Assembly: GCF_044704955.1 (NCBI RefSeq)
Contig: NC_091984.1
Coordinates: 146,258,001 to 146,322,000, forward strand
Direction: 5' to 3'
Length of the DNA: 64,000 nucleotides
Origin: Pristiophorus japonicus
Lineage: Eukaryota
In this document: positions 1-58,837 of the stretch, piece by piece
Layout: each line of letters begins with the position of its first letter
Position numbering within the stretch: the first letter of the stretch is position 1
Made by a program: the position numbers and the translations under genes
The notes under the pieces: model-generated
Told to the model about the DNA's origin: nothing
What the model saw: the letters and a program-made list of their open reading frames with translations, nothing else
Databases searched by the model: none

Positions 1-670
1 CGGGAGAGGTTTTAATCTGCTTGCGATCAGTTTGGTCACATTTACTGCCTTTGGTCAAGGTCACACAGGAATCAAAACCCTGCGTCCAATTCATTCCTGA
101 CCCGAAATCCTGTCATTGTCGTTTAAAAACAATCCCCACACCTCCCCTGCATTTCTGGCTAGATCCAACCACACAGACATAAATCCCTTATTCCTCCTTC
201 CACCACTTTTCCCAACACAATTTCACCCCTTCTCTTGTTCCTGTGCTCCGCCTGTTTGAGTTATTACCCAGTTTCTCCCATTCTGTGGATGCATTAACTT
301 TTCTCCTGTCTGTTTTCTGTAACCACCACCACCCTCCCATGGGGGTAATCCCTTTACATTCCAGACAAACTCGTCTCCCCTCTCTCACCCGTACATTCCT
401 GGCCGTGATGTTTAGCCTGGGGCAGGACACTGACACCTCCCCAAGTTTACCCTCGGTTTGTCTGGAGTACTTGGTCGAATTTGACCCCAACCACCCTGGC
501 CAGCTCCCAGTGTGAGCATCGGTGTTTGTGCCCTTGTTGCTCCGTATGGCTCCCCCTTGAGTTACAGTGGGGCCGGTTCCTCCCATACACCCGTGTGTAA
601 GGAATGTCTCGGTGTCTCCCCGATCTCCCAATCCTTTAATAATAATGGCCATCCACAGGCCTATCCACAA
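1..670 (-). pseudogene. env-position ORF of A1: signal peptide + Ig-like domain, interrupted by stops
   Basis: MWIGLWMAIIIKG... VRVREGRRVCLEC...WWWLQ...KEE*GIYVC. Homologous to 20740-21294. Confidence 0.7.
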
Positions 671-3600
671 CGTCCACCTCCTCTCGTACCCTTGGCTCGA
701 TTCGCTCCTATAAAGACAAAAATTAAAGAAATACCTTTGCTCTGTGGGGCCTCCCCCTCACAGGTCCTCCTTCAGTTATTCACAAATGTACGTAACTCCT
801 TTTTACAACCACTGCTTCCCTCTCCTTTTATCCCAATGCTTGGGCTTACAGAGGCTCGGGGGTGGAGATGGAGGAGGTGTCCAGGGCACCCTAGGTCACA
901 GTACCTGACCACTCCACCTTACTGCTCCGTCCCTTACTTCTCCATCCTCATCATCCCACAGTATTGGTGGGAGGCTTACACTGATCAAACTCATTATTGT
1001 TCGTGGGGCCTTGGCCCACTTTTTACGTTTCTCTCCGGGGTTGTACAGCTTACACTGGTTTATATGGAACCATTTTATATGTTTTGGCAGCTGGATCATG
1101 TACACCATAGGGCTTGCCTTGTCTACAATGCTATATGATCCTTTGTACAATGGTTCAAATGCCCCTATTCTGGCATAATTCCTGACCATTACCTGATCTC
1201 CTGCCCTCCATTCCTGTGTAACCCAGAGTTCCAGCAGCAGTTTATTCTGCTGGTGCTGCCTGCCCATATTGTTAGCTGCTTCCCAATGCAGCCCCTTCAG
1301 AGTACCATACAGATCTAACAAACCTGCCCCATGTGATCTCTTTAACCTGCGTTTCAGTCAGGACTGGTGCTAGGATATGGGTCGGGGTCATCATTAGTCT
1401 CCCTGTCATCATCACATGTGGGGAGTGTCCCGTACTCTTAGAGAGACTGGCTCAGTGGCTCATCAGTATTCGGGGTAGGGTCTCACCCCATTTCTTCGGG
1501 GTATCTCCTATTTCCTTCCTAAGCCTCTCTTTTAAGGTCCGGTTTGTCCTCTACTGGATCTAACGATTGGGGGTTATACGCCACATGCCATTTCCCCTGT
1601 ATCCCTAACAGCTTTAGGGTGGCCTGCATTACTGCTCCGGTGAAATGACTCCCTTGATCTGATTCCACTATCAGGGGCAGTCCCCATTGAGAAAATACTT
1701 CTCGCACCAGAACCTTTGCTGTGACTATCGCGGTGGCCGCCCGACATGGAAAAGCTTCAACCCATTTTGTAAAGAGATGTATTAACATAAGCAATATTTA
1801 TTGCCTCTGCCTGAGGTGGGCAGTGACCCAATTAAATCTATCTGTATAGACTGCCATGGCCCCTCTACCCTCCTCGTGTGTCCCAATGGAGCCTTCCTCG
1901 GTGGGGGTCTGGATTGTTTGTGGCACATACCAGACAATTCTGGCAATAATCCCTGACATCACTTCTAAGCCCGGGCCACCATCCCACGGCTTCTACTTTA
2001 TTCCACATTGTTTCTGGCCCTGGATGTCCAGCTCCTGGACCCACATGCACCAGCTGCAAGAATTCTTCCCTGCACTGCCCTGGCACGATCCAACTATCTC
2101 CCTTGAACAACATTCCTTGCTTTACTGCTATGTCTGCAGCTCCCAAAGGTCCCACTGCAGACTTCCCGTCTATTTTGTCCCTAATCGCTGCTCTAAGGTT
2201 TGCATCCCGTAGCTGAGCCTGTTTTAAATCAGGCGGCAATGGGACTTCTTTGGGCCTCTCTCTGCCTGTTACAGCCGTGATCTGTCCACAGTGATATGGG
2301 TCCCAAGGTGTCTCTTCTCCTGCCCCTGTTTTAGCCAGTGTGTCTGCTTTCTCATTCCCTTCCCACTTGGGCTCTGTCTTAGAGTGTGCTTTGACCTTTT
2401 GGATGTCGTCACCCTTCTGGTCCGTACCCTTGACGTGCAAAATGACTTTTAACAATGGAACCATCACCAACCATTTTCCATCTGAGGACTTAAACCCTCG
2501 CCTCGCCAATATGGCTAAATACTCTGTTCAGGAGTTAGAAATGAACATGGAGTCTGAACATATCGTATAGGGAGTTGGGAATTCGTTCGGGTGTGTGACT
2601 ACATACGCTACTGCTGCTAGCTCGGTCTGCTGCGTACTTAAAGTGTTGGGGATTTTATGGCTTTCTCCATCACTGCCTCTGGATCGTAAATCCCACAGCC
2701 TGTCTTTCTCTCTCTGTTTATTACTGAACTAGACCCATCTACATAGACGTCCCTGCCTGTCAGGTGTTCTCCTGCTCAGAATCCCACATCTACATCCCAC
2801 ACTCCTTCCACTGAACACACATGAGCTGCTCCCGGATAAACCAGGCTCGGGGCGAGCTTTGGTTCTCCTGACCTCTCGACCTTCAGGTCTAACTGAGTAA
2901 GCAACAATGTCCAGCGGGCAATCCTGTTACTGCTCACTGTCCCATCTTTCATTCTACCATCCAGTAACACTTGTGTCGTGGTGTGACAGGTCAGTAAAGT
3001 TACTGTAGCTAACCCTGTGAGCGACCGAAAATGCTTCACTGCCCAAAATGTTGCTAACAGATGTCGTTCGCAATTCGAAAAGCTCTTTTCTATTTCGATG
3101 AGATCTCGGGAGGCGTAGGCCACTGGTCTCAGCTTGTCGTGTCGCTCCTGGAATAACACTGCACTCAAACTGTCCCCAGTCATTGCTACCTCCAGACTAA
3201 AATCCTGGTCCCCATTTACTGCTCTCGATGCTGGTGCTGTCTGTAACACCGCTTTTAACCAAATGAAAGTTTCCTGACAAGTCTCACTCCATTCCCACTC
3301 TACTCCTTTCCGAAGAAGCCTCAACAAAGGAGCTGCCACGGTTACATAATCCTCTATGAATTCCCTGCAGTAACCCTTTTTCCCAGGAAAGACCTTACTC
3401 CAGACACGTCCTTAGGAACAGGTAGTTCCTGGACTAACTTTCTCTTAGCTCTATCTATGGCCCTTTCTCCTGCCCCAATGGTCAAACCTAGAAACTGCAC
3501 CTCCTCTTTGCCTATTTGAACTTTCTTGGGACTGACTTTAAAATCTGCTTCTTTCAACAAATGCAGTAACTCACTGAATAATGGCCCGTGGTCCTCCGCA

Positions 3601-6459
3601 CTTTCGGAGAATAACAACAGGTCGTCCACGTATTGGACCAACCGATCTGGCTGACTAAAACCGTTTAATGCCTCGGCCATACTCTGGTGGAAGATCGAGG
3701 GACTGTTGTGAAACCCTTGTGGAAGACATGTCCACGTATACTGCTGACCTTTAAAGGTAAAGGTAGATTTATACTGGTCCTCCCGTCTCAGCGGAATGGA
3801 CCAAAACCCGTTTGAAATGTCCCGCACTGTGAAAGTTGTTGTGGCCGCAGGGATACTCCCGATCAAATCCGCTACCACTGCTACCGTGGGCGCACAGGCT
3901 GGAATATTTTTTATTCAGGATTCGGTCATCTACCGTGGCCCTCCATGAGTTATCGGGCTTCTTTACTGGCCATAGGGGTGAGTTTACATGTGTGGCTATG
4001 GTCCTCAACGCACCTTGATCCACCAGGGAATTTATAGCAGTTTCCAAATCACTTTCTGCTTCCCGGGGAAAATTATACTGTTTCTGGGGTCGTGTCATCG
4101 GATCCCCATCTATCTTCACCTCTACCCCAGATACTATCCCGCAATCGTGCTTGTGCATTGCAAACGCATCCATATTCTCCCGTACATACCTTGATACCGG
4201 GCCGGAATGTTATCGACTAATCGTTCTCAGTCATAACTCCCTTTCGGCTTCATCGTGCAGGTGCTGCCTTTGTCTGTACTGTCCCTGGGAATCACTACGA
4301 TCTCTCCCATATTATCTGCATCAAATGCCCCCCATAGACAATTGTTTTCCATATCCACTATGGTGTGGTGTGTCAACATGTAGTCGGCCCCGAGAACTCC
4401 CGAACCGGGCTGTTCCCACTTCATTAAAATGCCCTCCCATTTCATTATGTTCGGTCCTAACTCTACGGTTAAGGGTTTCCACACTGCCCCAGCCTGCTCA
4501 TTACCCGTAAAACCCACCAGTGTAAATGGTACTCTGCTCGACCACGGGGAAGTGGTCGGATTCGGTGAGTGGACAACCGTGCTAGAGGCTCCTGTATCTA
4601 CTAGATCCCTTCCCCTAACTGTTTCCACCTTCACATCCACACATGGCCTGCCCCACCCATCATATATGAGCAGACACAGGTATTCTGGCTGGGTGCACCG
4701 TCACAGAGGGGGTGCCAACACATTGGGTCCCTTTTCTCCCACTGCTGCGTCCAGCTTTCCTCCACCCGTGCCCATAACCTGCTGTAATGCGGCCACTAAA
4801 ACCTGCACTGGGTCGTCGGCTACCTTCTTCTGGCCTTTTCCTGCCTCAGCACCTCGTACCCTGGCTTCCCTCCTTTAGAGAGCCTACAATCCTTGCTCCA
4901 GTCTCCCAACTTCCCACAGTTAAAACACTCACCTTTAGATCGACCCGCATTACCTCCCTCTTGTCTCCATTCTTTCTATGGCCGAACCTCTCCTTTTACT
5001 TCGTGCACCTTCCCGTTTAGTTTCTCCTCCTCCCCTTGCCTAGACTTAAAGCTAGAGTTAGTCTTCTCAGCACCCCTGCCTCTGTATTCTGGAGATGGTC
5101 TGGGTCAAACCATGCTTCAACCTTTGCTCTGAGCCGTGGCAAACTGTTACCATTACGGTTCTCAGCCAATGGTCCCTGGGTTCCCCTATTAAATCTGCCC
5201 GTACCAGATTTCCTCCAGCGGCCCTGAATAAATCGCCCACAGTCTGTCTGCAAACGTATCGGGTGATTCGTTTACTTGCTGCCTAGTCTGTTCTACCTGC
5301 CAGAACGGACTACCCTGACTGTACCCGAGCACTGCCATCATTTGCTCCTTTAAGCCCTGTGGGGTTCCTGCACCTAACTTGGTGGCTGTCGACAAGCTCT
5401 GATAAAGCTTCCCCTCCAGCGAGAGCAGTGTTAGCTTCACTTTCTCCTCCTCGCTGCAGTTATTGATACCCCCTATCTGCTCTATATTAGTAAAATGAAC
5501 AGAGACATCTCCTCCTTGCTTTAACTATACTACACCCGTCAGCATCTCTTGCAGCTGAAGCGGTGTGTATGGGATCACTAGTCGCTCTGTAATGGTGCCG
5601 GACCACCATTTGGTGGGGGTGGGCTGAATTTCTGCTGTCTCAAAGGACACATCGGTTTCAGGGGTCCCGGTGCCTCAGGAGCCGGCCGATGCTCGCGATA
5701 CTCGGGCCCATCGTCTGACTCTTTCCCCTCTGGATCCCAATCTTCCTCACCTGTTCCGGGTGCCCTGAGACAAACCATCCCTTTGGTCCCGTCTAACTCT
5801 GCCGTTAATTGGTGGATCTTTTCCTTACAAGGTCCGTGATCTGCTCTTGCGTAACCCTGTTTCTGAGCTACCTGATAGGCTATCGACTCTCCTGAGCTGG
5901 TCCTCTGCCTCTTTGGCTCTTTCTAAATGCCTTTCACTTTGTTCAATGTGGGTCTGCTGCTGCTTTTTGCACTCGGTCACCTGGCATTGTAAATACTCAA
6001 AGTGATTCCGTGCCGTTTCTTCCTTCCCACCCTGGTCCTGCCTTTCCTTCTCCAAACTGCCTACCTCGCCCTTTAACCCTTTATTCTCCTTCTCCAGCTT
6101 TCCTATCCTTTCTCTTAACAGTTGTGTCTGCTTCTGCAGGCACATGAGCCAAACCTCCTTCTCTTTTGACCCTTTGTGGTTACTACTGACTGTCCACTCT
6201 GCTGTTTGTTCCTGCGGATCCCCAGAGTGCAGCATTTCCCGTGCCCATGGCCCTGAAATGTTCAATTTATTGCCTATATATCCAGCTACCTTAGCCTCCA
6301 TGGACTCCCTACGACTGCTCTTACCCGCGGACTCTGCCACGTTTTGCTGCGGTGAGTCCATTTCCAGTGCCTCTGGCTGAGAAATTCTCCCTGACTACCT
6401 TGGTGTCCCCTGAGACCACCTCGCAGTGACCTGCGGTTCCTGTTACTCTGGCTTCTCTC

Positions 6460-7080
6460 TGTGGCTACCCTAGTCAACCCGAGACTACTTCGGCCTGTCA
6501 GAGACTTTCTCTCCTGGTCCCCTAGTCGCCCTTGAGATCACCCTTGGCCTCCCTGAGACTACCCGTGGCAATATTGGCTTTTCTCTGTGACTACCCCAGT
6601 CAACCCGAGATTATTCCAGCCTATCCGAGACTGTTTCTCTCCTCAGGCTGCCCTGGCCGCCCGTGAGATTATCCCTGGCCTCCCTGAGACCCCTGTGCAG
6701 ACTACCTGCGATTACTTCACCCGGTGGCTGCCCTAGTCAGTCGGAGCTCTTCGGCTACTCCTGGTCCCCCTTGAGATTCCCTTGGTCTCCCTGAGACCCC
6801 TTCGCAGACTACCTGCGGCTTTCTCGGTGGCTACTTTAGTCAACCTGGGATTATTCCAGCCTACCCAAGACTGTTCCTTCCTCTGCTGGCTGCCCTAGCC
6901 GCCCTTGAGAGTACAATGGTCTCCCTCAGACCACTGAGCAGCTACCTGAGACTTCTTTTCTCAGTGGCTACCCTAATCGACGGAGACGACTCAAGCCTAT
7001 CAGACCCTGTTACTCTCCTGGTCGCCCTAGTCGCCCTGGAGAAGATCCTTTTCGACCACCTTAGCCGACCTTTGACATAA
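6460..7080 (-). repeat. Imperfect ~110-130 bp tandem repeats in the retroviral 5' leader
   Basis: Recurring gtggctaccctagtcaacccgaga...ccagcct...gagac...ccctagtcgcccttgaga blocks, about 5 copies, between the PBS and the gag ATG. Confidence 0.7.
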
Positions 7081-7141
7081 CCAAGCCTCCCTCGGGGTTT
7101 TTGCTCTGGTATGTGTCCGTGATACGATTCCCAAAGCCGAG

Positions 7142-7159
7142 GTCCTGCTGCGGTCACCA
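7142..7159 (-). promoter_or_regulatory. Primer-binding site (TGGTGACCGCAGCAGGAC)
   Basis: Begins with TGG 5 nt after the LTR end (...CTACA at 7165). The first 8 nt match the tRNA-Trp-type PBS (TGGTGACC). Primer identity is uncertain. Confidence 0.65.
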
Positions 7160-7829
7160 ATTTCTGTAGGTAGTTTATTTTTCACTCTACTCTGATTCTT
7201 CGACCTGGGAACTTGTAGTGGGAAAGGACAACATGTGGCACAACATTTAGGCTTTACCCAGTGTCAGTTTTATTGTGCACAGAAACCGTCGAAAACTACA
7301 GGACTAGACTTCTGAGAGAAATCGACTGAAATCATACAATTGCCCTTCCTGGCTGTAGCTATTGTAGGTTCGTGGTCATTGGTTCCGTGACCGGTTGGTT
7401 CTTCTTCTGGCCGTTCTCTGCAGTGCTGTTACTTCTGTGTACGTTCCATACAACATGTTCCTCCGTCCATTCGTCTGTTCGTGCTTTCGACCTGTGTCCA
7501 TCGGTACATGTGTCCTTCTACTTCTCCTGTGTGCTTCTTCTTCCGTCTGTTCCTGTCCTTCTTCCATCTCCTGCTGAGCTGCTTCTAGCTCACATATTTA
7601 TATCCAGGTTATGACTGATCTCCCGCCACTGCGCTTTCTGATAAAGTGTTTGCATCAATACATTGTTTTGTGGTTCTCTTGTTTGATTGATTACAATAAT
7701 GAACTCGTCTGTTTTCCCATTTGCACACTGAGTCTGCAAGGCTCAAGTTGATTTCTCATCTTAACACCTCATCCTAAAAAATGTGCAACTGTTGTGGTTC
7801 CTTTGTTGTCAGGTCCTTTTACAGATTTG

Positions 7830-12540: not shown

Positions 12541-12829
12541 GAAACACAGAACCAGAAGGAGGCGCTGTCGACCCTCTCCAAGAACACAATCCAGTTGAGA
12601 GCAGACACCATCCAACTGTTTGTAGACAAAACCCACGCAAGGATCCAACCGCTCTGCGATGCCGTGTGATAAAGTGCGGGCTGAAGCTCTCAGTGTGCTG
12701 GGGAACTTGGCCATGGGGGGAATCGGAGGGTCCAGGTGTTGCTGCACCTGGATGGAAACAGTGAGCAGGTCACCAGGTCCTGTCGTTCAACACTGCGCTC
12801 CGTATTCCCACGTATTGGATCTGCTCAGT

Positions 12830-13075
12830 CTTCCTCAATAACTGAGAATGATCCAGGCGAACCCAACAGGGGCTACATGGACTTCCTCAGTAACTGAGAA
12901 TGATCCAGGGGAACCCAACAGGGGCTACATGGAGTTCCTCAGTAACTGAGAATGATCCAGGGGAACCCAACAGGGGCTACATGGACTTCCTCAGTAGCTG
13001 AGAATGATCCAGGGGAACCCAACAGGGGCTACATGGACTTCCTCAGTAACTGAGAATGATCCAGGGGAACCAACA
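12830..13075. repeat. 52-bp minisatellite, ~4.7 copies
   Basis: Unit cttcctcagtaactgagaatgatccaggggaacccaacaggggctacatgga, with copies starting at 12830, 12882 and onward. Confidence 0.9.
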
Positions 13076-14210
13076 GGAACATACCATTATTGTCCCTGGG
13101 GGTGCAAGAGGATGAGGAGAGGTGAGGAACATACAATTGTTTTCATCGTGGGTGGAGAAGAGGTGAGGACATGCTATTATTGTTCCCGGGGGAAGGAGAG
13201 AATGGGGAGAGGTGAGGAACATACCATTATTGTCCACAGGGATGGGGGTGGTGGAGAGGAGACGGAGACTTGAGGAACATACAATTATTGACCCGGGGAG
13301 ACGACGAGAGAGAGAGAGCGGTGAGGATCATACCATTATTGTCCCTGGGGTGGGGGAGAGGGAGAGGTGCGGAACATACCATTATTTTCCCAGAGAGGGA
13401 GGGGGGTAGAGGAGAGGCAGAGGTGAGAAACATACCATTATTGTCTCCGGGGGGGCGAAGAAGGAGAGCGGGTTGACTTATGAGGAATGGTTGAGTAGGT
13501 TGGGCCACCGCTCATTGGAATTCAGAAGAATGAGAGGTGATCTTATCAAAACATATAAGATTATGAGGGGGCTTGACAAGGTGGATGCAGAGAGGATGTT
13601 TCCACTGATGGGGGAGACTAGAACTAGAGGGCTTAATCTGAGAATAGGAGGCTGCCCATTTAAAACTGAGATGAGGAGGAATTTCTTCTCTCAGATGGTT
13701 GTAAATCTGTGGAATTCGCTGCCTCAGAGAGCTGTGGAAGCTGGGACATTAAATACATTTTAGACAGAAATAGAGTTTCTTAAATTATAATGGGTTATGG
13801 GGAATGAGCAGGGAAGTGGACCTGAGTCCATGATCGGATCAGCCATGATTGGATTAAATGGGGGAGCAGGCTCGAGGGGCGGTGTGGCCTACTCCTGCTC
13901 CTATTTCTTCAGTTCTTATGAGAGGTGAGGAACATACCATTATTGTCCCCTGGAGGGGGTGGGAGAGGAGAAGGAGAGGTGAGGAATAAACCATTATTGT
14001 CCCCGGGAGGGGGTGGGAGAGCAGAGGGAGAGGTGAGGAACATCCCATTATTGTCCCCGGAGGGACAGGAGAGGGAGAGGTGAGGAGCATCCCATTATTG
14101 TCTCCGGGTGAGGGGAGGGAGGGAGAGAGAGAGAAAGAGAGAGGGAGGGGAGCGTTGAAGAACATACGTTATTGTCCTGGGGGGGTGGGGTGAGTGGAGA
14201 GGTGAAGAAT
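13076..14210. repeat. Degenerate purine-rich minisatellite (gagaggtgaggaacataccattattgtccc...), interrupted by a CR1 3' end at ~13470-13920
   Basis: More than 10 copies of the gaggaacataccattattgtcc core. The CR1 fragment encodes RRMRGDLIKTYKI...RNFFSQ. Confidence 0.8.
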
Positions 14211-14218
14211 TGTAGCTC

Positions 14219-14988
14219 CAGCTTTCTGGCCATTTCTATCAACAATACTTTAAATCCTTAAATCCAAATCCCCAAGAAAGAACTGTCCTGTTTGGCGAGT
14301 TTGTGGGGGTGGCACTGAGGTGCATTCATATACAACCGGACATTTCACACTGACAGGCTGGGTGGCTGGGAACCCAGGCCCATTGATGTCATCACCATCT
14401 AAAGTGATTCCTGGGAACAATACCCCGAGAGGTAACTCAGAGACACTGTGCCCTCACATTATTAAAGCACAGTCACGACTCAGTCCCAACCCAAACTGGT
14501 GCGAGGCAGGAAATGGCCGGCCCGTTTTCTTCCAGGAGATAAGCCGGTTAAGCAAGATCGGTTTGTGATCGAAACCCATTACCTGCTAATGGGGGCCATC
14601 AACTCAGGAAACGACAGACATCCAGTAATCAGCACCCATTGTCTCTCCAGAGGCAAGGCCTGGGAGCGGGAAAACAAAATATCATTTTTCACAAAGATTT
14701 CAAAGGCTACGAGCCACTCCAGGCCACGGGGGGAGGGAGTCCAGACAGATCACCGTTGTCAATCCATCGGTCAGTATTGGCGGGAAGAAAGGTGATGGGT
14801 TTTGGGGATATAAGGAGCCGCTTTGCAACAAGCTCCAGCTCAGGAGGAAGAAAGCCCCGGAAAAAGCCCAGGAAAAAGCTCAGGAAAAAGCCCAGGAGCG
14901 AGACGTTCAGGAAGAAGCTGCAAGCAAGACAACGGGCAATCAGGGTGAGCATATTGCCTGCGCCTACACATCCACAAGACCACTTAGC
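14219..14988 (+). repeat. Duplicate of the 3' region of LTR element B (second copy at 23632-24453)
   Basis: About 90% identical by eye to 23632-24453. Joins the ERV A2 leader at a TAGC microhomology (14985-14988). Confidence 0.85.
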
Positions 14989-17258
14989 CACAGAGAGAAG
15001 CCAGAGTAACAGGAACCGCAGGTCACTGCGAGGTGGTCTCAGGGGACACCAAGGTAGTCAGGGAGAATTTCTCAGCCAGAGGCACTGGAAATGGACTCAC
15101 CGCAGCAAAACGCGGTCGAGCCCGCAGCTAACAGCCATCGTAGGAAGTCCATGGAGGCTAAGGTAGCTGGATATATAGGCAACAAATTGAACATTTCAGG
15201 GCTGTGGGCACGGGAAATGCTGCACTCTGGGGATCCGCAGGAAAAAGCGACAGAGTGGACAGTCAGTGGTAACCACAAAGGGTCAAAAGAGAAGGAGGTT
15301 TGGCTCATGTGCCTGCAGAAGCAGACACAACTGTTAAAAGAAAGGGTCAGAAAGCTGGAGGAGGAGAATAAAGGGTTAAAGGGCGAGGTAGGCAGTTTGG
15401 AGAAGGAAAGGCAGGACCAGGGTAGGAAGGAAGAAACGGCACGGAATCACTTTGAGTATTTACAATGCCAGGTGACCGAGTGCAAAAAGCAGCAGCAGAC
15501 CCACATTGAACAAAGTGAAAGGCATTTAGAAAGAGCCAAAGAGGCAGAGGACCAGCTCAGGAGAGTCGATAGCCTATCAGGTAGCTCAGAAACAGGGTTA
15601 CGCGAGAGCAGATCACGGACCTTGTAAGGAAAAGATCCACCAATTAACGGCAGAGTTAGACGGGACCAAAGGGATGGTTTGTCTCAGGGCACACGGAACA
15701 GGCGAGGAAGATTGGGATCCAGAGGGGAAAGAGTCAGACGATGGGCCCGAGAATAGCGAGCATCGGCCGGCTCCTGAGGCACCGGGACCCCTGAAACCGA
15801 TGTGTCCTTTGAGACAGCAGAAATTCAGCCCACCCCCCCAAATGGTGGTCCGGCACCATTACAGAGCGACCAGTGATCCCATACACACCGCTTCAGCTGA
15901 AGGAGATGCTGATGGGTGTAGTACAGTTAAAGCAAGGAGGGGATGCCTCTGTTCATTTTGCTAATATAGAGCAGATAGCGGGTATCAATAACTGCAGCGA
16001 GGAGGAGAAAGTGAAGCTAACACTGCTCTCGCTGGAGGGGAAGCTTTATCAGAGCTTGTCGACAGCCACCAAGTTAGGTGCAGGAACCCCACAGGACTTA
16101 AAGGAGCAAATGATGGCAGTGCTCGGGTACAGTCAGGGTAGTCCGTTCTGGCAGGTAGAACAGACTAGGCAGCAAGTAAACGAATCGCCCGATACGTTTG
16201 CAGACAGACTGTGGGTGATTTATTTCAGGGCTGCTGGAGGAAATCTGGTGCGGGCAGATTTAATAGGGGAACCCAGGGACCATTGGCTGAGAACCGGCTC
16301 AGAGCAAAGGTTGAAGTATGGTTTGACCCAGACCATCTCCAGAATACAGAGGCAGGGGTGCTGAGAAGATTAACTCTAGCTTTTAAGTCTAGGCAAGGGG
16401 AGGAGGAGAAACTAAACGGGAAGGTACACGAAGTAAAAGGAGAGGTTAGGCCATAGAAAGAATGGAGACAAGAGGGAGGTAATGCGGGTCGATCTAAAGG
16501 TGAGTGTTTTAACTGTGGGAAGTTGGGAGACTGGAGCAAGGATTGTAGGCTCTCTAAAGGAGGGAAGCCAGGGTACGAGGTGCTGAGGCAGGAAAAGGCC
16601 AGAAGAAGGTAGCCGACGACCCAGTGCAGGTTTTAGTGGCCGCATTACAGCAGGTTATGGGCACGGGTGGAGGAAAGCTGGACGCAGCAGTGGGAGAAAA
16701 GGGACCCAATGTGTCGGCACCCCCACTGTGACGGTGTGCCCAGCCAGAATACCTGTGTCTGCTCATATATGATGGGTGGGGCAGGTCATGTGTGGATGTG
16801 AAGGTGGAAACAGTGAGGGGAAGGTATCTGGTAGATACAGGAGCCTCTAGCACGGTTGTCCACTTACCGAATCCGACCACTTCCCCGTGGTCGAGCAGAG
16901 TACCATTTACACTGGTGGGTTTTACGGGTAATGAGCAGGCTGGGGCAGTGTGGAAACCCTGAACCGTAGAGTTAGGGCCGAACATAATGAAATGGGAGGG
17001 CATTTTAATGAAGTGGGAACAGCCCGGTTCGGGAGTTCTCGGGGCCGACTACATGTTGACACACCACACCATAGTGGATATGGAAAACAATTGTCTATGG
17101 GGGGCATTTGATGCAGATAAGATGGGAGAGATCGTAGTGATTCCCAGGGACAGTACAGACAAAGGCAGCACCTGCACGATGAAGCCGAAAGGGAGTTATG
17201 ACTGAGAACGATTAGTCGATAACATTCCGGCCCGGTATCAAGGTATGTACGGGAGAAT

Positions 17259-18623
17259 ATGGATGCGTTTGCAATGCACAAGCACGATTGCGGGATAGTA
17301 CCTGGGGTAGAGGTGAAGATAGACGGGGATTCGATGACACGACCCCAAAAACAGTATAATTTTCCCCGGGAAGCAGAAAGGGATTTGGAAACTGCTATAA
17401 ATTCCCTGGTGGATCAAGGTGTGTTGAGGACCATAGCCACACATGTAAACTCACTCCTATGGCCAGTAAAGAAGCCCGATAACTCATGGAGCGCCACGGT
17501 AGATGACCGAATCCTGAATAAAAATATTCCAGCCTGTGCGCCCACGGTAGCAGTGGTAGCGGATTTGATCGGGAGTATCCCTGCGGCCACAACAACTTTC
17601 ACAGTGCTGGACATTTCAAACGGGTTTTGGTCCATTCCCCTGAGATGGGAGGACCAGTATAAATCTACCTTTACCTTTAAAGGTCAGCAGTATAAGTGGA
17701 CATGTCTTCCACAAGGGTTTCACAACAGTCCCTCGATCTTCCACCAGAGTTTGGCCGAGGCATTAAACGGTTTTAGTCAGCCAGACCGGTTGGTCCAATA
17801 TGTGGACGACCTGTTGTTATTCTCCGAAAGTGCGGAGGACCACGGGCCATTATTGAGTGAGTTACTGCATTTGTTGAAAGAAGCAGGTTTTAAAGTAAAT
17901 CCCCAGAAAGCTCAAATAGGCAAAGAGGAGGTGCAGTTTCTAGGTTTGACCATTGGGGCAGGAGAGAGAGCCATAGATGGAGCGAAGAGAAAGTCAGTCC
18001 AGGAACTACCTGTTCCGAAGGACGTGTCTGGAGTAAGGTCTTTCCTGGGAATAACGGGTCACTGCAGGGAATTCATAGAGGGATATGTAACCATGGCAGC
18101 TCCTTTGTTGAGGCTTCTTAGGAAAGGAGTAGAGTGGGAATGGAGTGAGACTTGTCAGGAAACTTTCATTTGGTTAAAAGAGGTGTTACAGACAGCACCA
18201 GCATCGGGAGCAGTAAATGGGGACCAGGACTTTAGTCTGGAGGTAGCAATGACTGGGGACAGTTTGAGTGCAGTGTTACTCCAGGAGCGACACAGCAAGC
18301 TGAGACCGGTGGCCTACGTCTCCCGAGTTCTCACCGAAGTAGAAAAGAGCTTTTCGAATTGCGAACGACATCTGTTAGTAATATGTTGGGCAGTGAAGCA
18401 TTTTCGGTCGCTCACAGGGTTAGCTACAGTAACTTTACTGACCTGTCACACCACAACACAAATGTTACTGGATGGTAGAATGAAAGATGGGACAGTGAGC
18501 AGTAACAGGATTGCCCGCTGGACATTGTTGCTTACTCAGTTCGACCTGAAGGTCGAGAGGCCCCGAGCCTGGTTTATCCGGGGACAGCTCATGTGTGTTC
18601 AGTGGAAGGAGTGTGGGATGTAG
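17259..18623 (+). CDS. pol: Retroviral reverse transcriptase + first RNase H (tether-like) region, part of a disrupted pol
   Basis: 454-aa ORF with LDISNGFWSIPL, WTCLPQGFHNSP, QYVDDLLL and RPVAYVSR...CERHLL. Confidence 0.9.
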   Translation: MDAFAMHKHDCGIVPGVEVKIDGDSMTRPQKQYNFPREAERDLETAINSLVDQGVLRTIATHVNSLLWPVKKPDNSWSATVDDRILNKNIPACAPTVAVVADLIGSIPAATTTFTVLDISNGFWSIPLRWEDQYKSTFTFKGQQYKWTCLPQGFHNSPSIFHQSLAEALNGFSQPDRLVQYVDDLLLFSESAEDHGPLLSELLHLLKEAGFKVNPQKAQIGKEEVQFLGLTIGAGERAIDGAKRKSVQELPVPKDVSGVRSFLGITGHCREFIEGYVTMAAPLLRLLRKGVEWEWSETCQETFIWLKEVLQTAPASGAVNGDQDFSLEVAMTGDSLSAVLLQERHSKLRPVAYVSRVLTEVEKSFSNCERHLLVICWAVKHFRSLTGLATVTLLTCHTTTQMLLDGRMKDGTVSSNRIARWTLLLTQFDLKVERPRAWFIRGQLMCVQWKECGM

Positions 18624-20739
18624 ATGTGGGATTCTGAGCAGGAGAACACCTGACAGGCAGGGACGTCTATGTAGATGGGTCCAGTTCAGTAATAAACAGA
18701 GAGAGAAGACAGGCTGTGGGATTTACGATCCAGAGGCAGTGATGGAGAAAGCCATAAAATCCCCAACACTTTAAGTACGCAGCAGACCGAGCTAGCAGCA
18801 GTAGCGTATGTAGTCACACACCCGAACGAATTCCCAACTCCCTGTATGATATGTTCAGACTCCATGTTCATTTCTAACTCCTGTACAGAGTATTTAGCCA
18901 TATTGGCGAGGCGAGGGTTTAAGCCCTCAGATGGAAAATGGTTGGTGATGGTTCCATTGTTAAAAGTCATTTTGGATGTCACGGGTACGTACCAGAAGGG
19001 TGACTACATCCAAAAGGTCAAAGCACACTCTAAAACAGAGCCGAAGTGGGAAGGGAATGAGAAAGCAGACACACTGGCTAAAACAGGGGCAGGAGAAGGG
19101 ACACCTTGGGACCCATGTCACTGTGGACAGATCATGGCTGTAACAGGCAGAGAGGGGCCCAAAGAAGTCCCATTGCCGCCTGATTTAAAACAGGCTCAGC
19201 TACGGGATGCAGACCTTAGAGCAGCGATAAGGGACAAGATGGATGGGAAGTCTGTAGCGGGAACTTTGGGAGCTGCAGACATAGCAGTAAAGCAAGGAAT
19301 ATTGTTCAAGGAGATAGTTGGATCGTGCCAGGGCAATGCAGGGAAGAATTCTTGCAGCTGGTGCATGTGGGTCCAGGAGCTGGACATCCAGGGCCAGAAA
19401 CAATGTGGAATAAAGTAGAAGCCGTGGGATGGTGGCCCGGGCTTAGAAGTGATGTCAGGGATTATTGCCAGAATTGTCTGGTATGTGCCACAAACAATCC
19501 ACACCCCCACCGAGGAAGGCTCCGTTGGGACACACGAGGAGGGTAGAGGTGCCATGGCAGTCTATACAGATAGATTCCATTGGGCCACTGCCCACCTCAG
19601 GCAGAGGCAATAAATATTGCTTGGTGTTAATACATCTCTTTACAAAATGGGTTGAAGCTTTTCCATGTCGGGCGGCCACCGCGATAGTCACAGCAAAGGT
19701 TCTGGTGCGAGAAGTATTTTCTCAATGGGGACTGCCCCTGATAGTGGAATCAGATCAAGGGAGTCATTTCACCGGAGCAGTAATGCAGGCCACCCTAAAG
19801 CTGTTAGGGATACAGGGGAAATGGCATGTGGCGTATAACCCCCAATCGTTAGATCCAGGAGAGGACAAACCGGACCTTAAAAGAGAGGCTTAGGAAGGAG
19901 ATAGGAGATACCCCGAAGAAATGGGATGAGACCCTACCCCGAATACTGATGAGCCACCGAGCCAGTCTCTCTAAGAGTACGGGACACTCCCCACATGTGA
20001 TGATGACAGGAGACTAATGAGGGCCCCGACCCATATCCTAGCACCAGTCCTGACTGAAACGCAGGTTAAAGAGATCACATGGGACAGGTTTGTCAGAGAT
20101 CTGTATGGTACTCTGAAGGGGCTGCATTGGGAAGAAGCTCACAATATGGGCAGGCAGCACCAGCAGGATAAACTGCTGCTGGAACCCTGGGTTACACAGG
20201 AATGGAGGGTAGGGGATCAGGTAATGGTCAGGAATTATACCAGAATAGCGGCATTTGAACCATTGTACAAAGGACCATATAGCATTGTAGGCAAGGCAAG
20301 CCCTATGGTGTACACGATCCAGCTGCCAAAACATATAAAATGGTTCCATATAAACCAGTGTCAGCTGTACAACCCCGGAGAGAAAAGTAAAAAGCGGGCC
20401 AAGGCCCCTGGAACAATAATGAGTTTGATCAGTGTAAGCCTCCCACCAATACTGTGGGATGATGAGGATGGAGAAGTAAGGGACGGAGCAGTAAGGTGGA
20501 GTGGTCAGGTACTGTGACCTAGGGTGCCCTGGACACCTCCTCCATCTCCACCCCCGAGCCTCTGTAAGCCCAAGCATCGGGATAAAAGGAGAGGGAAGCA
20601 GTGATTGTAAAAAGGAGTTATGTACATTTGTGAATAACTGAAGAAGGACCTGTGAGGGGGAGGCCCCACAGAGCAAAAGTATTTCTTTCATTTTTGTCTT
20701 TATAGGAGCGAATCGAGCCAAGGGTACGAGAGGAGGTGG

Positions 20740-21891
20740 ATGTTGTGGATAGGCCTGTGGATGGCCATTATTATTAAAGGATTGGGAGATCGGGGAGACA
20801 CCGAGACATTCCTTACACACGGGTGTATGGGAGGAACCGGCCCCACTGTAACTCAAGGGGGAGCCATACGGAGCAACAAGGGCACAAACACCTATGCTCA
20901 CACTGGGAGCTGGCCAGGGTGGTTAGGGTCAAATTCGACCAAGTACTCCAGACAAACCGAGGGTAAACTTGGGGAGGTGTCAGTGTCCTGCCCCAGGCTA
21001 AACATCACGACCAGGAATGTACGGGTGAGAGAGGGGAGACGAGTTTGTCTGGAATGTAAAGGGATTACCCCCATGGAAGGGTGGTGGTGGTTACAGAAAA
21101 CAGTCAGGGGAAAAGTTAATGCATCCACAGAATGGGAGAAACTGGGTAATAACTCAAACAGGTGGAGCAGAGGAACAAGAGAAGGGGTGAAATTGTGTTG
21201 GGAAAAGTGGTGGAAGGAGGAACAAGGGATTTATGTCTGTGTGGTTGGATCTAGCCACAAGTGCAGGGGAGGTGTGGGGATTGTTTTTAAATGACAATGG
21301 CAGAATTCTGGGTCAGGAATGAATTGGACGCAGGGTTTTGATTCCTGTGTGACCTTGACCAAAGGCAGTCAATGCGACCGAACTGATCGCAAGCAGATTA
21401 AAACCTCTCCCTAAAATGCTGAAAGATTCTTCCTTTTGTTTCAAACCCCAGGTTGAGGCACAAGTAGCACAAGAAAGAATAATTCCTATCTCAGACCACA
21501 AACATATCCATATTACAGTCAATGATACGTTACGAACCTCCAGGGATACATATCGCGTGTTGGATACTATATCCCACCGTTACCCAAACATTTGACTGAA
21601 CTGTTAAAGAACATCGAGTTGTCCCACAAACATTATTACACGTTACAACAAAAGAATGAAAAAGTAAGGGCGGAAATTGAGGAAATGATTGCCCCTCCAC
21701 AGTGGGATGTGGGACTCAATATTGAGATCCCCTCCTGGGTTCGAATTGTATCACACTTGTTAGTAATTGTACAGTTGGTAATAGTGTTGTATCTATTCGT
21801 CTTGTCCTGTTAATTAAAGCAAAAGATGAGGGAAGGGAATCTTGAAAGGTTATTAAAATCAACCAAGGCGAAAGTGTTTGTAAAAGTATAA
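20740..21891 (+). pseudogene. env-position gene of A2: signal peptide, Ig-like domain, coiled coil, TM
   Basis: 20740-21294 carries an Ig-like C...W...GxYxC pattern. After stops and frameshifts, 21592-21813 gives LTELLKNIELSHKHYYTLQQKNEKVRAEIEEM followed by hydrophobic IVSHLLVIVQLVIVLYLFVLSC. Confidence 0.72.
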
Positions 21892-22047
21892 ACTGAAGTC
21901 AGATGGATTAAGGCCAAACATTGTTTTGTTGTAAAAAGTATGTAATGTGGAGATTTGACTGAAGACTGCAATACACCCAAAAGAGCTCAAGGGAAAGAAG
22001 AAGAAGTCACCTAGAGTAATGTCTCTGAGTTTATAACAAGAGATATT

Positions 22048-22058
22048 AAAGGGGGAAG
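22048..22058 (+). promoter_or_regulatory. Polypurine tract
   Basis: AAAGGGGGAAG immediately precedes the TGTAAG LTR start. Confidence 0.8.
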
Positions 22059-22875
22059 TGTAAGGGTTATATGTTTCATGATCGAGGCACAGCAAGAGGC
22101 CATGGACTAAAATGGCTGAAAAGAAAACCTTTGGGACTGTTGGGCAGGAGAAAGAGCACCAGCCTGGGGAAGGTGATGATTGATCACTGATTAATGTGAT
22201 TTCTGGGGTCAGGAGTGAGACCCGATTAACATCGAGACAAAGGGTTTGATACAATCAAGCAGAGCAGCCCATGGATTCATTGGCCGGAGGGGAAAACCAG
22301 TTCCCTCTGGAGACTCCAAGTCTGCGAAAACCCAGGACAACAAAGGATCCCACAAGGCATGCATTCTTGGATAACGGGGCACAAAAGATAAGGAGTTATC
22401 TTTTGCCCCGTCGATTCCATGTGTGAATTGTGGCCATCCGAACAGATCCAGACCCATCACCACAGCCATCGAGGCTCATCCAGCTGCATTAACTGAAAGG
22501 CAGCCGAGCAGGAGATGTGTATAATCAAATGGATATATCTGTAAGAGCTGAGAACAAAGGTTCAGAGAGAGGAAGAACAGGTCGAAGAAACATCTCAAAC
22601 CAGCAGGTCAATGAACTACAGCCACGAAGCAGCAGCAGGGCCACAACACCTTCCCTCGCTCCACGAGCCGACAATGGACAACAGTAGCAACTGGCTGGAT
22701 GGGCGATTGTATGTCTTCGGTCAATCTCTAAGAAGACTTGTTCTGTAATGTTTAATTGTTTTTTGTGTAATAAACTAACAGTTGGGTTTAAGCCTAAACT
22801 TTGCATTACATGGAGTCCTTCCTGTAATTCCCGAGGTCTATGAATCAGAGTAGAGTGGAAAACCAACACCCTACA
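22059..22875 (+). repeat. 3' LTR of A2 (817 bp)
   Basis: Bounded by TGTAAG...CCTACA, with AATAAA at ~22768. Homologous to the A1 5' LTR. Confidence 0.82.
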
Positions 22876-24747
22876 GCACATGAGCTCATGACCGCGAGGT
22901 AAACCGGGACAGGTTTGTCCAGAATCTGTTTGATGTTTTAAAACAGATTCACTGGCAGGCAGCCAGTAACCTGGGGAACCAGCACCGGGAAACATCGGTT
23001 GCTACTTGAGCCCCGGAGAAGCCACGAGTGGAAGGTGGGAGACCAGGTAATGTTCAGGAACTGTGCTCGAGTGGGGGCATTCGAGCCACTGTACATGGGG
23101 CCTTATAACATCGTAGATAAGGCCAGCCCCATGGTATATGCAGTCAGACTCCCGAAACATACAAAATGCTGCCATATCAACCAATGCAAGTTGTTTAACC
23201 CCAAGGAGGGGGGAAGACAAAGGCAAAGAGAAACCAGGGCACGATAATGAGCCTGGTGGACACGGGTCTTCCTCCCATGGTGTAGGACGATGATGATGAC
23301 CCAGAGGGCGGGACAGTAAGGAGAAACAGTCAGATACCACGGCCTAGGGCGCCTTGGACGCCTCCTTACTCACCGGCCGCGAGCCGCAAGGTGCCCCAAC
23401 AGGAGAGATTTTAACCGGGGGCACTCGATAATGCGGAACGAACTGTATATATATGCAAATAACGAAAGCCCGACCTGTGGAGGGAAAAAGCGCTCAGAGA
23501 ACGGTCTTAATCAGGAAATCAGAAGAAACGGGAGCCTGGGTGTAATTGATCAGTAATGGACCCACAATGCACCTCCCGCAGCAGAAGATGACGGAATCGA
23601 GATATTTCTGGTTTTGGTGATAAAATATCATCAGCTTTCTGGACATTTCTATCAACAATACTTTAAATCCTTAAATCCAAATCCCAAGAAAGAACTGTGC
23701 TGTTTGGCGAGCTTGTGGGGGTGGCACTAAGCTGCATTCATATACAACCGGACATTTCACACTGACAGGCTGCGTAACAGGGAACCCAGGCTTATTGATG
23801 TCATCACCATCTAAAGTGATTCCTGGGAACAATACCCCGAGAGGTAACTCAGAGACACTGTGCCCTCACATTATTAAAGCACAGTCACGACTCAGTCCCA
23901 ACCCAAACTGGTCCAAGGCAGGAAATGGCCGGCCCATTGTCTTCCAGGAGATAAGCCGGTTAAGCAAGATCGGTTTGTGATCGAAACCCATTACCTGCTA
24001 ATGGGGGTCATCAACTCAGGAAACGACAGACATCCAGTAATCAGCACCCATTGTCTCTCCAGATGCAAGGCCTGGGAGCGGCAAAACAAAATATCATTTT
24101 TCACAAACATTTCAAAGGCTATGAGCCGCTCCAGGCCACGGGGGGAGGGGGGGGGGGGGGAGGAGGGGTCCAGACAGATCACCGGAGTCAATCCATCGGT
24201 CAGTATTGGCGGGCGGAAGAAGTGATGAGTTTTGGGGATATAAGGAGCCACTTTGCAACAAACTCCAGCTCAGGTGGAAGAACGCTATGGAAAAAGCTCC
24301 GGAAAAAGCCCAGGAAAAAGCTCCGGTAAAAGCTCCAGAAAAGCCCAGGAAAAAGCCCGGGAGTGAGACGTTCAGGAAGAAGCTGCAAGCAAGACAACGG
24401 GCAATCAGGGTGAGCATATTGCCTGCGCCTACACATCCACAAGACCACTTAGCTGTGTGAGGGGGTGATTGTAAGTCCCAACCAAACCCAAGGGGTTTAG
24501 TGCTGGGGGGGGGTCCTGTGTTAGTTTATTTCACGGGAGGGTTCTTTTATTAAGCCGTGGTAACTTAACACGGCAGGGCTTATTGGACAAGCCAGGGTTG
24601 TACTGTTTTGCACTGTTTATGAGTGGTGTTGTTAATCTTATTTGGTTGAGCCTGAAAAATGTGAGTCTGATCTGTCCATATAATCCCTATCGTCCAGAAC
24701 TTGTAGTAGGAGGTGCATTTACGTTACGCCCGAGAAAACCACCTACA
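22876..24747 (+). mobile_element. 3' part of related LTR element B (integrase C-terminus, 3' region, short LTR 24470-24747)
   Basis: EWKVGDQVMFRN...EPLYMGPYNIV...HINQCK is a paralog of the A integrase tail. A G-run precedes TGTAAG (24470), and the LTR ends CCTACA (24747). Confidence 0.7.
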
Positions 24748-24749
24748 GG

Positions 24750-25325
24750 CACCCCCTCAGTACTGCCCCTCCGATAGTGCGGCACTCCCTCAATATTGCC
24801 CCTCTGGCAGTGCGGCACCCCCTCAGTACTGCCCCTCCGATAGTGCGGCACTCCCTCAGTATTGAACCTCCGACAGTGCGGCACTCCCTCAATACTGCGC
24901 CTCTGACATTGCAGCACTCCCTCAGTACTGCCCGTCTGACAGTGCAGCGCTCCCTCAGTACTGCCCCTCTGACAGTGCGGCACTCCTTCAGTACTGCCCC
25001 TCTGACAGTGCGGCACTCCCTCAGTACTGCACCTCTGACAGTGCGACACTCCCTCAGTACTGCCCCTCTGACAGTGCAGCACTCCCTCAGTACTGCCCTT
25101 CTGACAGTGCAGCACTCCCTCAGTACTGTCCCTCTGACAGTGCAGCACTCCCTCAGTACTGGCCGTCCTGACAGTGCGGCACTCCTTCAGTACTGCCCCG
25201 ACAGTGCAGCACTCCCTCTGTACTGCCCCTCTGACAGTGCAGCACTCCCTCAGTACTGCCCCTCCGATAGTGCAGCACTCCCTCAGTACTGCCCCTCTGA
25301 CAGTGCAGCACTCCCTCAGGACTGC
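24750..25325. repeat. 33-bp minisatellite, ~17 copies, SINE-derived
   Basis: Unit cactccctcagtactgcccctctgacagtgcgg. The same motif occurs once within the SINEs at ~27520 and ~35690. Confidence 0.9.
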
Positions 25326-26739
25326 ACAGTAGTGTATGTCTTTATTTTACACTCAGGTCCCTAGAGTGGGGCTTGAACCCACGATACAACATTGCATCAC
25401 TGGATGCCGCACAGTCTGAGCTGTGAGTCATATCCCGACCTCAGTTGGAACAGCTAACTCAGAACAAACAACAACAACAACTTTTATACAGCACCTTTAA
25501 CACAGTAAAACTCCCCAAGCACTTCACAGGAGCGTTATAGAATAAAGATTGACAGCGAGCCACGTAAGGAGACATTGAAAATTGCAGCTCAGTCAAATTG
25601 TGAGGGAAATTGGCAGTGTTGTCTTCATACCAAAAGGGGGCGATGTTGGTTCTGAAAAGACCAAATTTTTGGACAATTTCTGTGTCACTCAATTGATTGG
25701 TTTGTAAAACGCGTTTGGACCAAACCTCCAGTCAGGTTTGCAGAATAATTTCCAGTTCCCCACGTGACATTTGATGGTGGATCTCAGCAGGTATCTCCTC
25801 GTCCGCTCGTGAGGCGGTGTCTCAGACCGATTGGGGGTCAGAAGCCACTCTGCACTGCAGTGAGCATCGGCAGGCCATTCACTGTGGGAGGCCTCACCGC
25901 GGAGCTCGGTGCACGGGGTATATCCACACAGAGACAGCCAGGAACGGCAGCAACAACCTGCATTGCTACAGTAACTGGAACATTAGAACAACATCCCGAA
26001 GCAGCTGACAGAGGCGTAATCTGGTCAAAGTGGTGCTGAGCCAAAGGGGGAGGGGCTGGGAGGGTGATCAAAACGCTCAGTCACAGATTGGGTTTGAGAG
26101 GGAGGTCTTAAAAGAGGAGAGGGGTGGAGTGGCAGAGAGGTTTAGGGAGCAGGGAGTTAGGGCCCAGGCAGCTGAAGGCACGGCCCCCAATGGAGGGGGA
26201 AGGGAAGGGGGGATGGATAAGAAGCCTGAGCCAGATACAACGGCCCCTGAACACAACAACAACTTGCATTTATATAGCGAGTGTTGTGACAATGACAGAC
26301 AGTGAGAATATAACCCTGATAATGTAACACAGTATTTGCAGCACTTGACACTGTTGGGAAAGCTTGTAATTTTAAATCCATGAGCTGTACCTAAGCGAGA
26401 GCAGGACCTGTTTGTGGCCGGTGCGGAGATCACCACTTACAGAAGGTAGTTACTGCAGGGAATTCAGGGCCACAGTGACCTCCTGGACTAGTTTCCATCG
26501 CCTGGGGGCGGGGCTGGAGAGGAGTTTCCCAGATTTATTTCCCCCAATGGGTTTTTTCCCTGGTTTTTTGCCTCTCCCAGGAGGTCAGGTAGTTTTGGGT
26601 GGGGTGGAGAGTCTATACTGTGATACACAAGGTATCACAATTGTGTGGGACGGGCTGGATGGACCACAGGGTCTTTACCTGTCCGTCACTGTCTGTGGGT
26701 TTGGGTTTCAAAGATGTAGAGCTGAATTGGAAAGAAAGA

Positions 26740-34809: not shown

Positions 34810-35137
34810 CTACACACATTCTGCTCTCCTGACCCCCTTGCTGAGGGGAGAGGAGAGGCTCTCGTGGGTGAGGCTGCAGGAGAAGCTGGCGTTGGATCCC
34901 AGTCGGAGCCAGAGAGGGTCAGCAGGCTGCTGACACTGTAGGTGTTGTCCGAAGCTCGCAGGTAGTCGCTGGTCTGGACCCCGGCCGAAATGGTCACCCC
35001 GTCCTTCTTCCACTCCACCTCCAGCGCATCGGGGTAGAAGTGATCGGCGAGGCACACCAGGGTGGCAGTGCCCTTGGTCGTGACCTCCTCCGGGGAGGGG
35101 GGCAGCAGGGTCAGTGTGGGTGGTGTCTTCCCTCGGC
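34810..35137 (-). pseudogene. IGKC: Ig light-chain kappa (NS4/type III-like) constant exon with a 1-nt deletion
   Basis: Acceptor tttcag|GC, then (S)RGKTPPTLTLLPPSPEEVTTKGTATLVCLADHFYPDALEVEWKKDG...YSVSSLLTLSGSDW, a frameshift at ~34896, then SNASFSCSLTHESLSSPLSKGVRRAECV*. Minus-strand AATAAA at 34307-34312 and 34212-34217. Confidence 0.92.
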
Positions 35138-35349
35138 CTGAAAGGGAGGAGAAGGATGTTTAATAGATTTATATTAGTGTCTGTGTGTCTCTGTTAGTGT
35201 TTCCGTGTGGAGATAATTCACATCTGATAATGGAGAGCTGGGTTAATGAACTCCTGGATGGCGATTAACCATTCGAAGCGAGCAACACTAATTCTTAATC
35301 TTCTTTGCCTCGCTTGATAAGTTTAATATAAATATAAATGCGTTTGATG

Positions 35350-56309: not shown

Positions 56310-57135
56310 AGACACCCATCAAGGACACTGAGGCAGTCAGAACCTGCTGGAAGGAACACTTTGAAGATCTCCTTAATCGAGAATCTGCCTTAGATCTGAG
56401 TGTCCTCGACTCCATCCCGCAGCATGCTACCCATCACCTTCTCAGTAAAACCCCAGCCCTGCACGAGGTTGAAAAGGCCATCTGTCAGCTCAAGAGCAAC
56501 AAGGCATCGGGGACGGATGGAATCCCCGCTGAGGCATTAATGTATGGCAGAGCGTCACTATTGACATGAATGCATGACCTCATCTCTCTCATCTGGAGGG
56601 CGGAGAGCATGCCGGGAGATCGCAGAGATGCAGTAATCGTGATCCATCTTTAAAAAAGGGGACAAGTCCGACTGCGGCAACAGCAGAGGAATCTCCCTGT
56701 TATCAGCCACTGGGAAAGTCATCGCGAGAATCCTCCTCAACAGTCTTCTCCCTGTGGCTGAGGAGCTCCTGCCGGAGTCAAAATGCGGATTCCGTCCACT
56801 ACGGGGTACAACGGACATGATATTTACGGCGCGACAACTGCAAGAGAAAATCAGGGAACAGCACCAACCCTTGTCCATGGCCACCTTTGACCTTACAATG
56901 GCCTTTGACACTGTTAACCGCGAGGGTCTGTGGACCATCCTCCTCCATTTCGGCTGCCCCCAAAAGTTTGTCCCCATTCTCAGCCTGCACCACGACGACA
57001 TGCAAGCCATGGTCCTAACCAACGGATCCATCATAGACGCAATCCACATTCGGACCGGAGTCAAGCAGGGCTGCATTAACGCACAAACCCTATTCTCGAT
57101 CTTCCTAACGACAATGCTCCACCTCACACTATTGG
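56310..57135 (+). mobile_element. RTE-clade LINE RT fragment
   Basis: LPESKCGFRPLRGTTDMIF, FDLTMAFDTV and GVKQGC. Confidence 0.85.
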
Positions 57136-57139
57136 AAAA

Positions 57140-57550
57140 CCAGTAGGAAGGAGCCATGTTTCCTGATCCCTATTGGAGGACCAATAGGAAAGAGCCATGT
57201 TTCTTGGTCCCTATTTGGGGATCAACAGGAAGGGACCATGTTTCCTGGTTCCTATTGGGGGACCAATAGGAAGGTATCATGTTTCACGCGACCTATTCGA
57301 GGACCAGTAGGAAGGAGCCATGTTTCCTGGGCCCTATTCGAGGAACAATAGGAAGGAGCCATGTTTCCTGGGCCCTATTCGAGGACCAATAGGAAGGAAC
57401 GATGGTTCCTGGTCCCTATTGGGGGACCAATAGGAAGGATCGATGTTTCCTGGTCCCTATTGGGGGATCAAAAGGAAGGAGCCATGTTTCCTGGCCCCTA
57501 TTGGAGGACCTATAGGAAGGGGCTATGTTTTGTGGGCCCTATTGGAGAAG
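57140..57550. repeat. 41-bp minisatellite with an internally palindromic unit, ~10 copies
   Basis: Unit ccaataggaaggagccatgtttcctggtccctattggagga. An isolated copy lies at ~55620-55660. Confidence 0.88.
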
Positions 57551-58535: not shown

Positions 58536-58837
58536 GTATCAGTGGGGACATCATCATGACCCAGTCTCCCCCGGTGCTGTCAGTGAGTGAGGGACAGACT
58601 GCAACCATCACCTGTACCGCCAGTGCATCTGTTAGCAGCGGTTATGTTGCTTGGTACCAGCAGAAAGCTGGGCAGAAACCCACTCTGCTGATCTATGCAG
58701 CAACAGCTCGTTTCACTGGAACCTCCAATCGCTTCACCGGCAGTCAACAGTCCAACATGTTCACCCTGAGCATCAGCAACGTGCAGAGCGAGGATGTCGC
58801 AGACTATTACTGTCAGCAATATAGCAACTACCCTCTA
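58536..58837 (+). CDS. IGKV: Ig kappa V exon, intact and unrearranged
   Basis: Acceptor ttcag|, then [26 protein letters not shown]...WYQQ...LLIY...[16 protein letters not shown]. Confidence 0.96.

Follow-up and report, generated by a model that had tools for sequence, protein, structure and literature searches.

A decayed env gene in Pristiophorus japonicus and the predicted immunoglobulin-like domain and F-type fusion protein of its fuller copies

Introduction

What kind of envelope protein (Env) is encoded by a retroviral env gene that carries the marks of an immunoglobulin (Ig) domain? The question is raised by a 64,000-nucleotide stretch of the Pristiophorus japonicus genome (GCF_044704955.1, contig NC_091984.1, positions 146,258,001 to 146,322,000 of the forward strand; hereafter the window), which holds two inverted copies, A1 and A2, of one long terminal repeat (LTR) element. 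In A2 (14985-22875, + strand) a preliminary description placed a frame at 20740-21891 and offered a captured host Ig-superfamily domain fused to an Env remnant as one reading of it. The analysis reported here shows that A2 belongs to an abundant family of endogenous retroviruses and is itself dead and lacks an internal part. In more complete copies, env codes for what is predicted to be an F-type fusion protein with an Ig-superfamily domain, likewise predicted, in front of it; on balance we take this domain to be a likely attachment head.

Env proteins of the F type are described for lokiretroviruses (PMC7947760; PMC9040795), foamy viruses (PMC11468914) and errantiviruses (bioRxiv 2023.10.26.564294), and domain II of F itself has an Ig fold (PMC11468914). 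The preliminary description denied canonical retroviral Envs an Ig-superfamily fold. This is incorrect: in gamma-type Envs the receptor-binding domain (RBD) is a modified IgV domain, and an ERV-S Env has taken up a SIRP-like IgV domain from its host (bioRxiv 10.1101/2024.03.17.585361).

Results

The env of A2 is dead and internally deleted

A genome search listed at least 150 matches to the element, from 8,679 candidates. The best 24 of these are 93-100% identical; 17 lie within one 5-Mb part of a single contig (C8) and 7 on small contigs. Twenty loci with longer flanks, picked by high score or long frames (19 dispersed, 1 on C8), were compared with A2. None aligns unbroken over 21420-21429: ten hold 1.11-1.19 kb more at this junction, three carry larger inserts at this same point, two break nearby and five have no right flank in the stretch taken. 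The approximately 1.15 kb missing from A2 encodes a strand and helix of the F2 subunit, an RxKR site, a fusion-peptide-like segment, a long heptad stretch and a Cys-rich body. The deletion thus removed F2, the furin site, the fusion peptide, heptad repeat A (HRA) and most of the F1 body. The earlier observation that A2 has no furin site or fusion peptide is correct, but its cause is this deletion, and RxKR is present in the fuller copies. Likewise, 'Env remnant' is an apt term for A2, although the family had a complete fusion protein, predicted to be of the F type.

What remains is not one coding frame. The 383 codons of 20740-21891 are interrupted by five stops and by two small frameshifts, one near 21355 and the other near 21530. 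Among the 17 C8 copies A2 alone has the ATG at 20740; the other 16 have no start codon there. Of 8 dispersed copies, 7 start a few codons further upstream, at a start that none of the 17 on C8 has. The 14 C8 copies that share the deletion differ in the N-terminal frame by 28 nonsynonymous, 4 synonymous and 4 stop variants (p 0.21 against neutral), which shows no constraint after insertion. LTR pairs, found in 4 of the 9 copies examined, are 79-93% identical, so the subfamily of A2 is old; the same genome holds subfamilies 57-63% identical to it with longer open frames. Given the Ig light-chain exons in the window and the concentration of the best 24 matches on C8, the element multiplied together with the light-chain clusters, and this particular copy was dead before this happened.

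Most of what had been read directly from the sequence holds. The frame lies between the integrase (Pfam rve match upstream) and the polypurine tract (PPT) and LTR downstream. It contains VRVREGRRVCLEC, WWWLQ, KLCW, EQGIYVC, several sequons, a heptad stretch and a transmembrane segment. A1 and A2 do differ at the two stops described earlier (TGA at 21292 in A2 for CGA in A1; TAA after KEE in A1 for CAA in A2), and the ancestral N-terminal frame was longer than in A2. The segment described as a hydrophobic signal peptide is present; its hydrophobicity is moderate, with no 19-residue window above 1.5. A1 also carries env. The flank past the 3' LTR is common to both copies at 94% identity; they are duplicates of one insertion and therefore not independent witnesses.

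In several public gene models (P0001, P0006, P0012, P0013, P0023 and P0039), env pieces are joined to genes of the host (zinc finger, cadherin-like, F-box), or a part of env is treated as an intron. These are probably annotation artefacts, although some may reflect exonisation.

The fuller copies encode a predicted F-type fusion protein

Over about 400 residues the predicted fold of the fusion part is that of paramyxovirus/pneumovirus F (PF00523), which comprises domains I-III, HRA and the membrane-proximal heptad repeat B (HRB). Sequence identity to F is 10-15%, and a Pfam scan gave no match. The RxKR site is followed by the fusion peptide and heptad in the fuller copies and in relatives, and the transmembrane segment lies within the window. 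The copies scanned gave no match to TLV_coat or similar Pfam families; the CXXC, immunosuppressive domain (ISD) and CX6CC motifs of gamma-type Envs were not searched one by one.

The N-terminal domain is predicted to have an Ig-superfamily fold

The domain in front of the fusion part has the features of a V/I-set domain, with B- and F-strand cysteines, a C-strand tryptophan and the GxYxC motif (C106, W116/117, G163, Y165 and C167). Among nine relatives 42-48% identical, Cys103, Cys106, Cys153, Cys167 and Cys175 are kept in all covering sequences, the Ig cysteines in 9 of 9. Relatives with a named source come from sharks and a skate. The C/W/C pattern noted earlier is thus beyond chance. The profile and fold searches that had been proposed as a check return Ig domains, the best neighbours by sequence and by fold being cellular V/I-set domains. 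Scores are weak: with Ig_3, A2 reaches 15.4 bits and the best copy 24.5, below the curated cut-off of 30. No host donor gene was found among 39 matches, so that of the proposed host capture the Ig-like assignment stands while capture itself is unproven. The Ig V and C exons of the window are no closer to the domain than shuffles (z 1.1 and -0.4). The location beside an Ig locus is therefore coincidental as to origin, as had been suspected, but it does account for the local amplification.

The ratio of nonsynonymous to synonymous change (dN/dS), also suggested in the preliminary description, was determined for 22 dispersed copies by comparing changes found in three or more copies, which mostly date from replication, with private changes. 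For the Ig part it is 0.23 for common against 0.68 for private changes (p 0.015), and the fusion-core regions (0.12-0.22) do not differ from it (p 0.55). Common CpG decay could enter the common class, which would raise, not lower, dN/dS. The Ig part was under purifying selection while the virus replicated, and distant subfamilies have the arm too, at 7 of 8 loci.

Related fusion cores carry different N-terminal domains

A fusion-core tree of 17 rows, from which fragments shorter than 140 residues were omitted, joins the element of A2 with a skate protein in a 99/99 clade. A clade of shark Envs (99/98) has another, Cys-rich N-domain; in the sister shark Envs P0009, P0018 and P0025 this domain is of about 110 residues, unrelated and with no Pfam match, and stands where the Ig arm would sit. 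A further clade (100/98) comprises a Chiloscyllium Env (labelled Ig-like in UniRef), two frog Envs and one other Env. Their N-domains point weakly and separately to antibody heavy-chain variable (VH) domains (E 0.003) or to CEACAM/SLAM/TIGIT (E 0.2-1.5), and do not align with the Ig-like domain of A2's family. We propose that the head was exchanged between lineages; either one ancient Ig head diverged past recognition and was replaced once, or there were several separate acquisitions.

The frog Envs P0017 and P0034 carry an additional furin-type site ahead of the Ig-like domain. In P0017 a hydrophobic segment also precedes this domain, recalling the foamy leader peptide. The cluster of P0034 counts 16 members from a single species, many of them of the same length.

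Pol places the element tentatively beside snakehead retrovirus

The window holds the parts of a retrovirus (LTR, primer-binding site (PBS), gag, protease, reverse transcriptase (RT), tether, RNase H, integrase, env and PPT), and the order of RT, RNase H-like tether, second RNase H and integrase (Pfam rve) in pol is the retroviral one. In a tree without named rows for snakehead retrovirus (SnRV), ERV-L, foamy or loki viruses, RT falls on the retrovirus side (100/100 against gypsy-type rows), in a grade with coelacanth and frog 'NYNRIN-like' Pols. In PDB scores the RTs of murine leukaemia virus and foamy virus rank above that of Ty3. Counted by hand over the first 134 RT positions, with sequences from the supplement of PMC7947760, the element agrees with SnRV at 65 and with one loki Pol at 46; RT motifs judged by eye differ from loki. 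On these counts the element is tentatively called SnRV-like (clade Huo, PMC8922424; class III-related) and not a lokiretrovirus. A single Gag zinc knuckle, as reported for SnRV (PMC1224870), agrees with this placement.

SnRV uses tRNA-Arg as primer. The PBS of A1 is complementary to the 3' end of tRNA-Arg(UCG) genes of the same genome; of four loci scanned, two are Arg-TCG and two, at the same place, have an unresolved anticodon. The comparison with SnRV covers RT, Gag and primer.

Discussion

If the predictions are correct, a spliced env mRNA would give a type I glycoprotein, cut by furin at RxKR into an outer subunit (N-terminal arm, Ig domain and F2) and a membrane subunit (fusion peptide, HRA, body, HRB and transmembrane segment). 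The trimer would show three Ig heads able to bind a cell-surface partner, after which heptad refolding would fuse the membranes. The head would thus do the task of the paramyxovirus H/HN/G protein and of the inserted foamy RBD. This is the account that we favour for the fuller copies, with moderate conviction; whether the head derives, long ago, from a host Ig-superfamily gene is close to an even call.

The position of the domain bears on its function. The outer, N-terminal place and the swapping between lineages match the RBDs of gamma-type Envs, and the window copy has no other surface gene. These points speak against the unlikely alternative that the Ig fold did not bind the receptor but, on virions or infected cells, helped the protein to fold, shielded it with glycans or acted as an immune decoy. 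That alternative draws on the four sequons of the arm, on the many extra conserved cysteines tying the domain to its flanks, and on the Ig-like immune modulators of large DNA viruses, some of them among the weak matches; the selection data are silent on function. Origin is a separate matter. The weak Ig scores, the Ig fold of F domain II, the documented transfer of RBDs between Envs and the missing donor would all suit a viral beta-sandwich that merely resembles Ig, or an Ig module of viral origin (a duplicated F domain II, or a gamma-type RBD gained by recombination). Such an arm without host capture is rather improbable when its best neighbours are cellular, the B-F cysteines, C-strand Trp and GxYxC are kept, and two other lineages separately point to cellular V domains. 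That the host co-opted the truncated signal-plus-Ig frame as a secreted protein might be read from the open N-terminal frame of A2, the stop directly after the domain in most C8 copies and the amplification within an immune locus. This idea is very improbable, being largely refuted by the variant counts, the missing start codons and the lost 5' LTR.

The nearest known layouts all differ from this one. Loki Env (PMC7947760) likewise has a signal peptide, RxKR, fusion peptide, coiled coil, transmembrane segment, F likeness and a similar F2 start, together with dual RNase H in Pol. F-like Env and dual RNase H, both present here, are not unique to loki; the one short loki Env compared has no N-terminal arm. 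The main text of that source contains neither 'immunoglobulin' nor 'Ig-like', and its table, in which six chondrichthyan assemblies were found, gives none of these six the star that marks a loki carrier. The foamy RBD has a novel fold and is inserted just before the furin site (PMC11468914), whereas the domain here is Ig-like and precedes the whole F fold. Gamma-type RBD-C and the SIRP-like IgV of ERV-S.1-Dbi share an N-terminal IgV-like head on a retroviral Env, swapped between lineages and in one case captured from the host, but they sit on gamma/avian-type Envs and not on an F-type fusogen, and the SIRP donor is clear where none was found here (bioRxiv 10.1101/2024.03.17.585361). The literature search returned no paper with an Ig-like head on an F-type Env, and the available parts of PMC11521997, PMC12583693, PMC1224870 and PMC12287698 contain nothing on this layout. 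Paramyxovirus and pneumovirus F (PF00523) lack an N-terminal Ig arm, and in paramyxoviruses attachment is by a separate H/HN/G protein.

The interest lies in the family, not in the A2 locus, a dead duplicate. An N-terminal Ig head would be a third way to give an F-type fusogen specificity, and would connect the F-type class with the use of IgV domains for receptor binding in gamma-type Envs. Should the placement by Pol be right, F-type Envs extend past loki and foamy viruses, which bears on how often retroviruses gained env. It is possible, though doubtful, that a snakehead-like lineage of sharks, skates and frogs carries an F-type fusogen with a plug-in attachment head, for which various Ig-superfamily genes of the hosts supplied a new domain on several occasions and a non-Ig module did so once. 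Were this true, F-type Env would stand, with loki and foamy, on three deep retroviral branches as a candidate ancestral envelope, and F would be seen to work without a separate attachment protein.

Features of the window

The coordinates are collected in Table 1. A2 has neither a 5' LTR nor a PBS.

Table 1. Features of the two element copies and of the Ig light-chain exons in the window.
Feature	Position	Strand	Basis or remark
A1, inverted duplicate of A2	1..6467	-	96% identical; env start near 673, then past window edge
A1 remnant 5' LTR end and PBS	7140..7365	-	PBS complementary to tRNA-Arg(UCG) 3' end
A2 gag-pol, broken: gag (coiled coil, one zinc knuckle), protease, RT, tether, second RNase H, integrase	14985..20517	+	profile scan, sequence
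Pyrimidine tract and AG, likely env splice acceptor (use inferred)	20682..20705	+	similar tract in 7/8 dispersed copies
Signal-peptide-like segment; ATG private to A2	20740..20787	+	translation, copy comparison
N-terminal arm preceding Ig-like domain, conserved	20788..20991	+	predicted structure pLDDT < 50
Ig-superfamily-like domain, V/I-set pattern; B-strand Cys 21055, F-strand Cys 21238, extra conserved Cys	20992..21291	+	profile, fold, conservation
Premature stop	21292..21294	+	in 13/17 C8 copies
Junction of ~1.15 kb deletion	21420..21429	+	copy alignment; common to 14/17 C8 copies
F ectodomain end and HRB, frameshift near 21530	21430..21744	+	sequence
Transmembrane segment, premature stop at its end	21745..21813	+	hydropathy peak 2.76 at residue 340
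Short cytoplasmic tail and terminal stop	21814..21891	+	translation
PPT	22048..22058	+	sequence
3' LTR, TG...CA, 817 nt	22059..22875	+	identical end in 7 dispersed copies
Ig light-chain C exon, frameshifted, inverted neighbouring cluster	about 34815-35140	-	sequence
Ig light-chain V exon, 12-spacer signal	58547-58865	+	sequence
Ig light-chain J, 23-spacer signal	60549-60614	+	sequence

The remnant 5' LTR of A1 (7164-7365, - strand) and the 3' LTR of A2 (22681-22876, + strand) are just 70% identical, against 96% for the internal parts, which suggests a recombinant or a neighbouring older element. A stretch of about 800 nt, 89% identical, occurs on both sides of A2 (23632-24453 and 14219-14988) and replaces its 5' LTR and leader. 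The light-chain exons are presumably kappa-like. Minisatellite arrays lie at 24683-25406, 57088-57620, 59364-59987 and 12779-13090, with units of 33, 41, 64 and 52 nt, respectively, and much of the window between 29 and 55 kb consists of fragments of long interspersed nuclear elements (LINEs).
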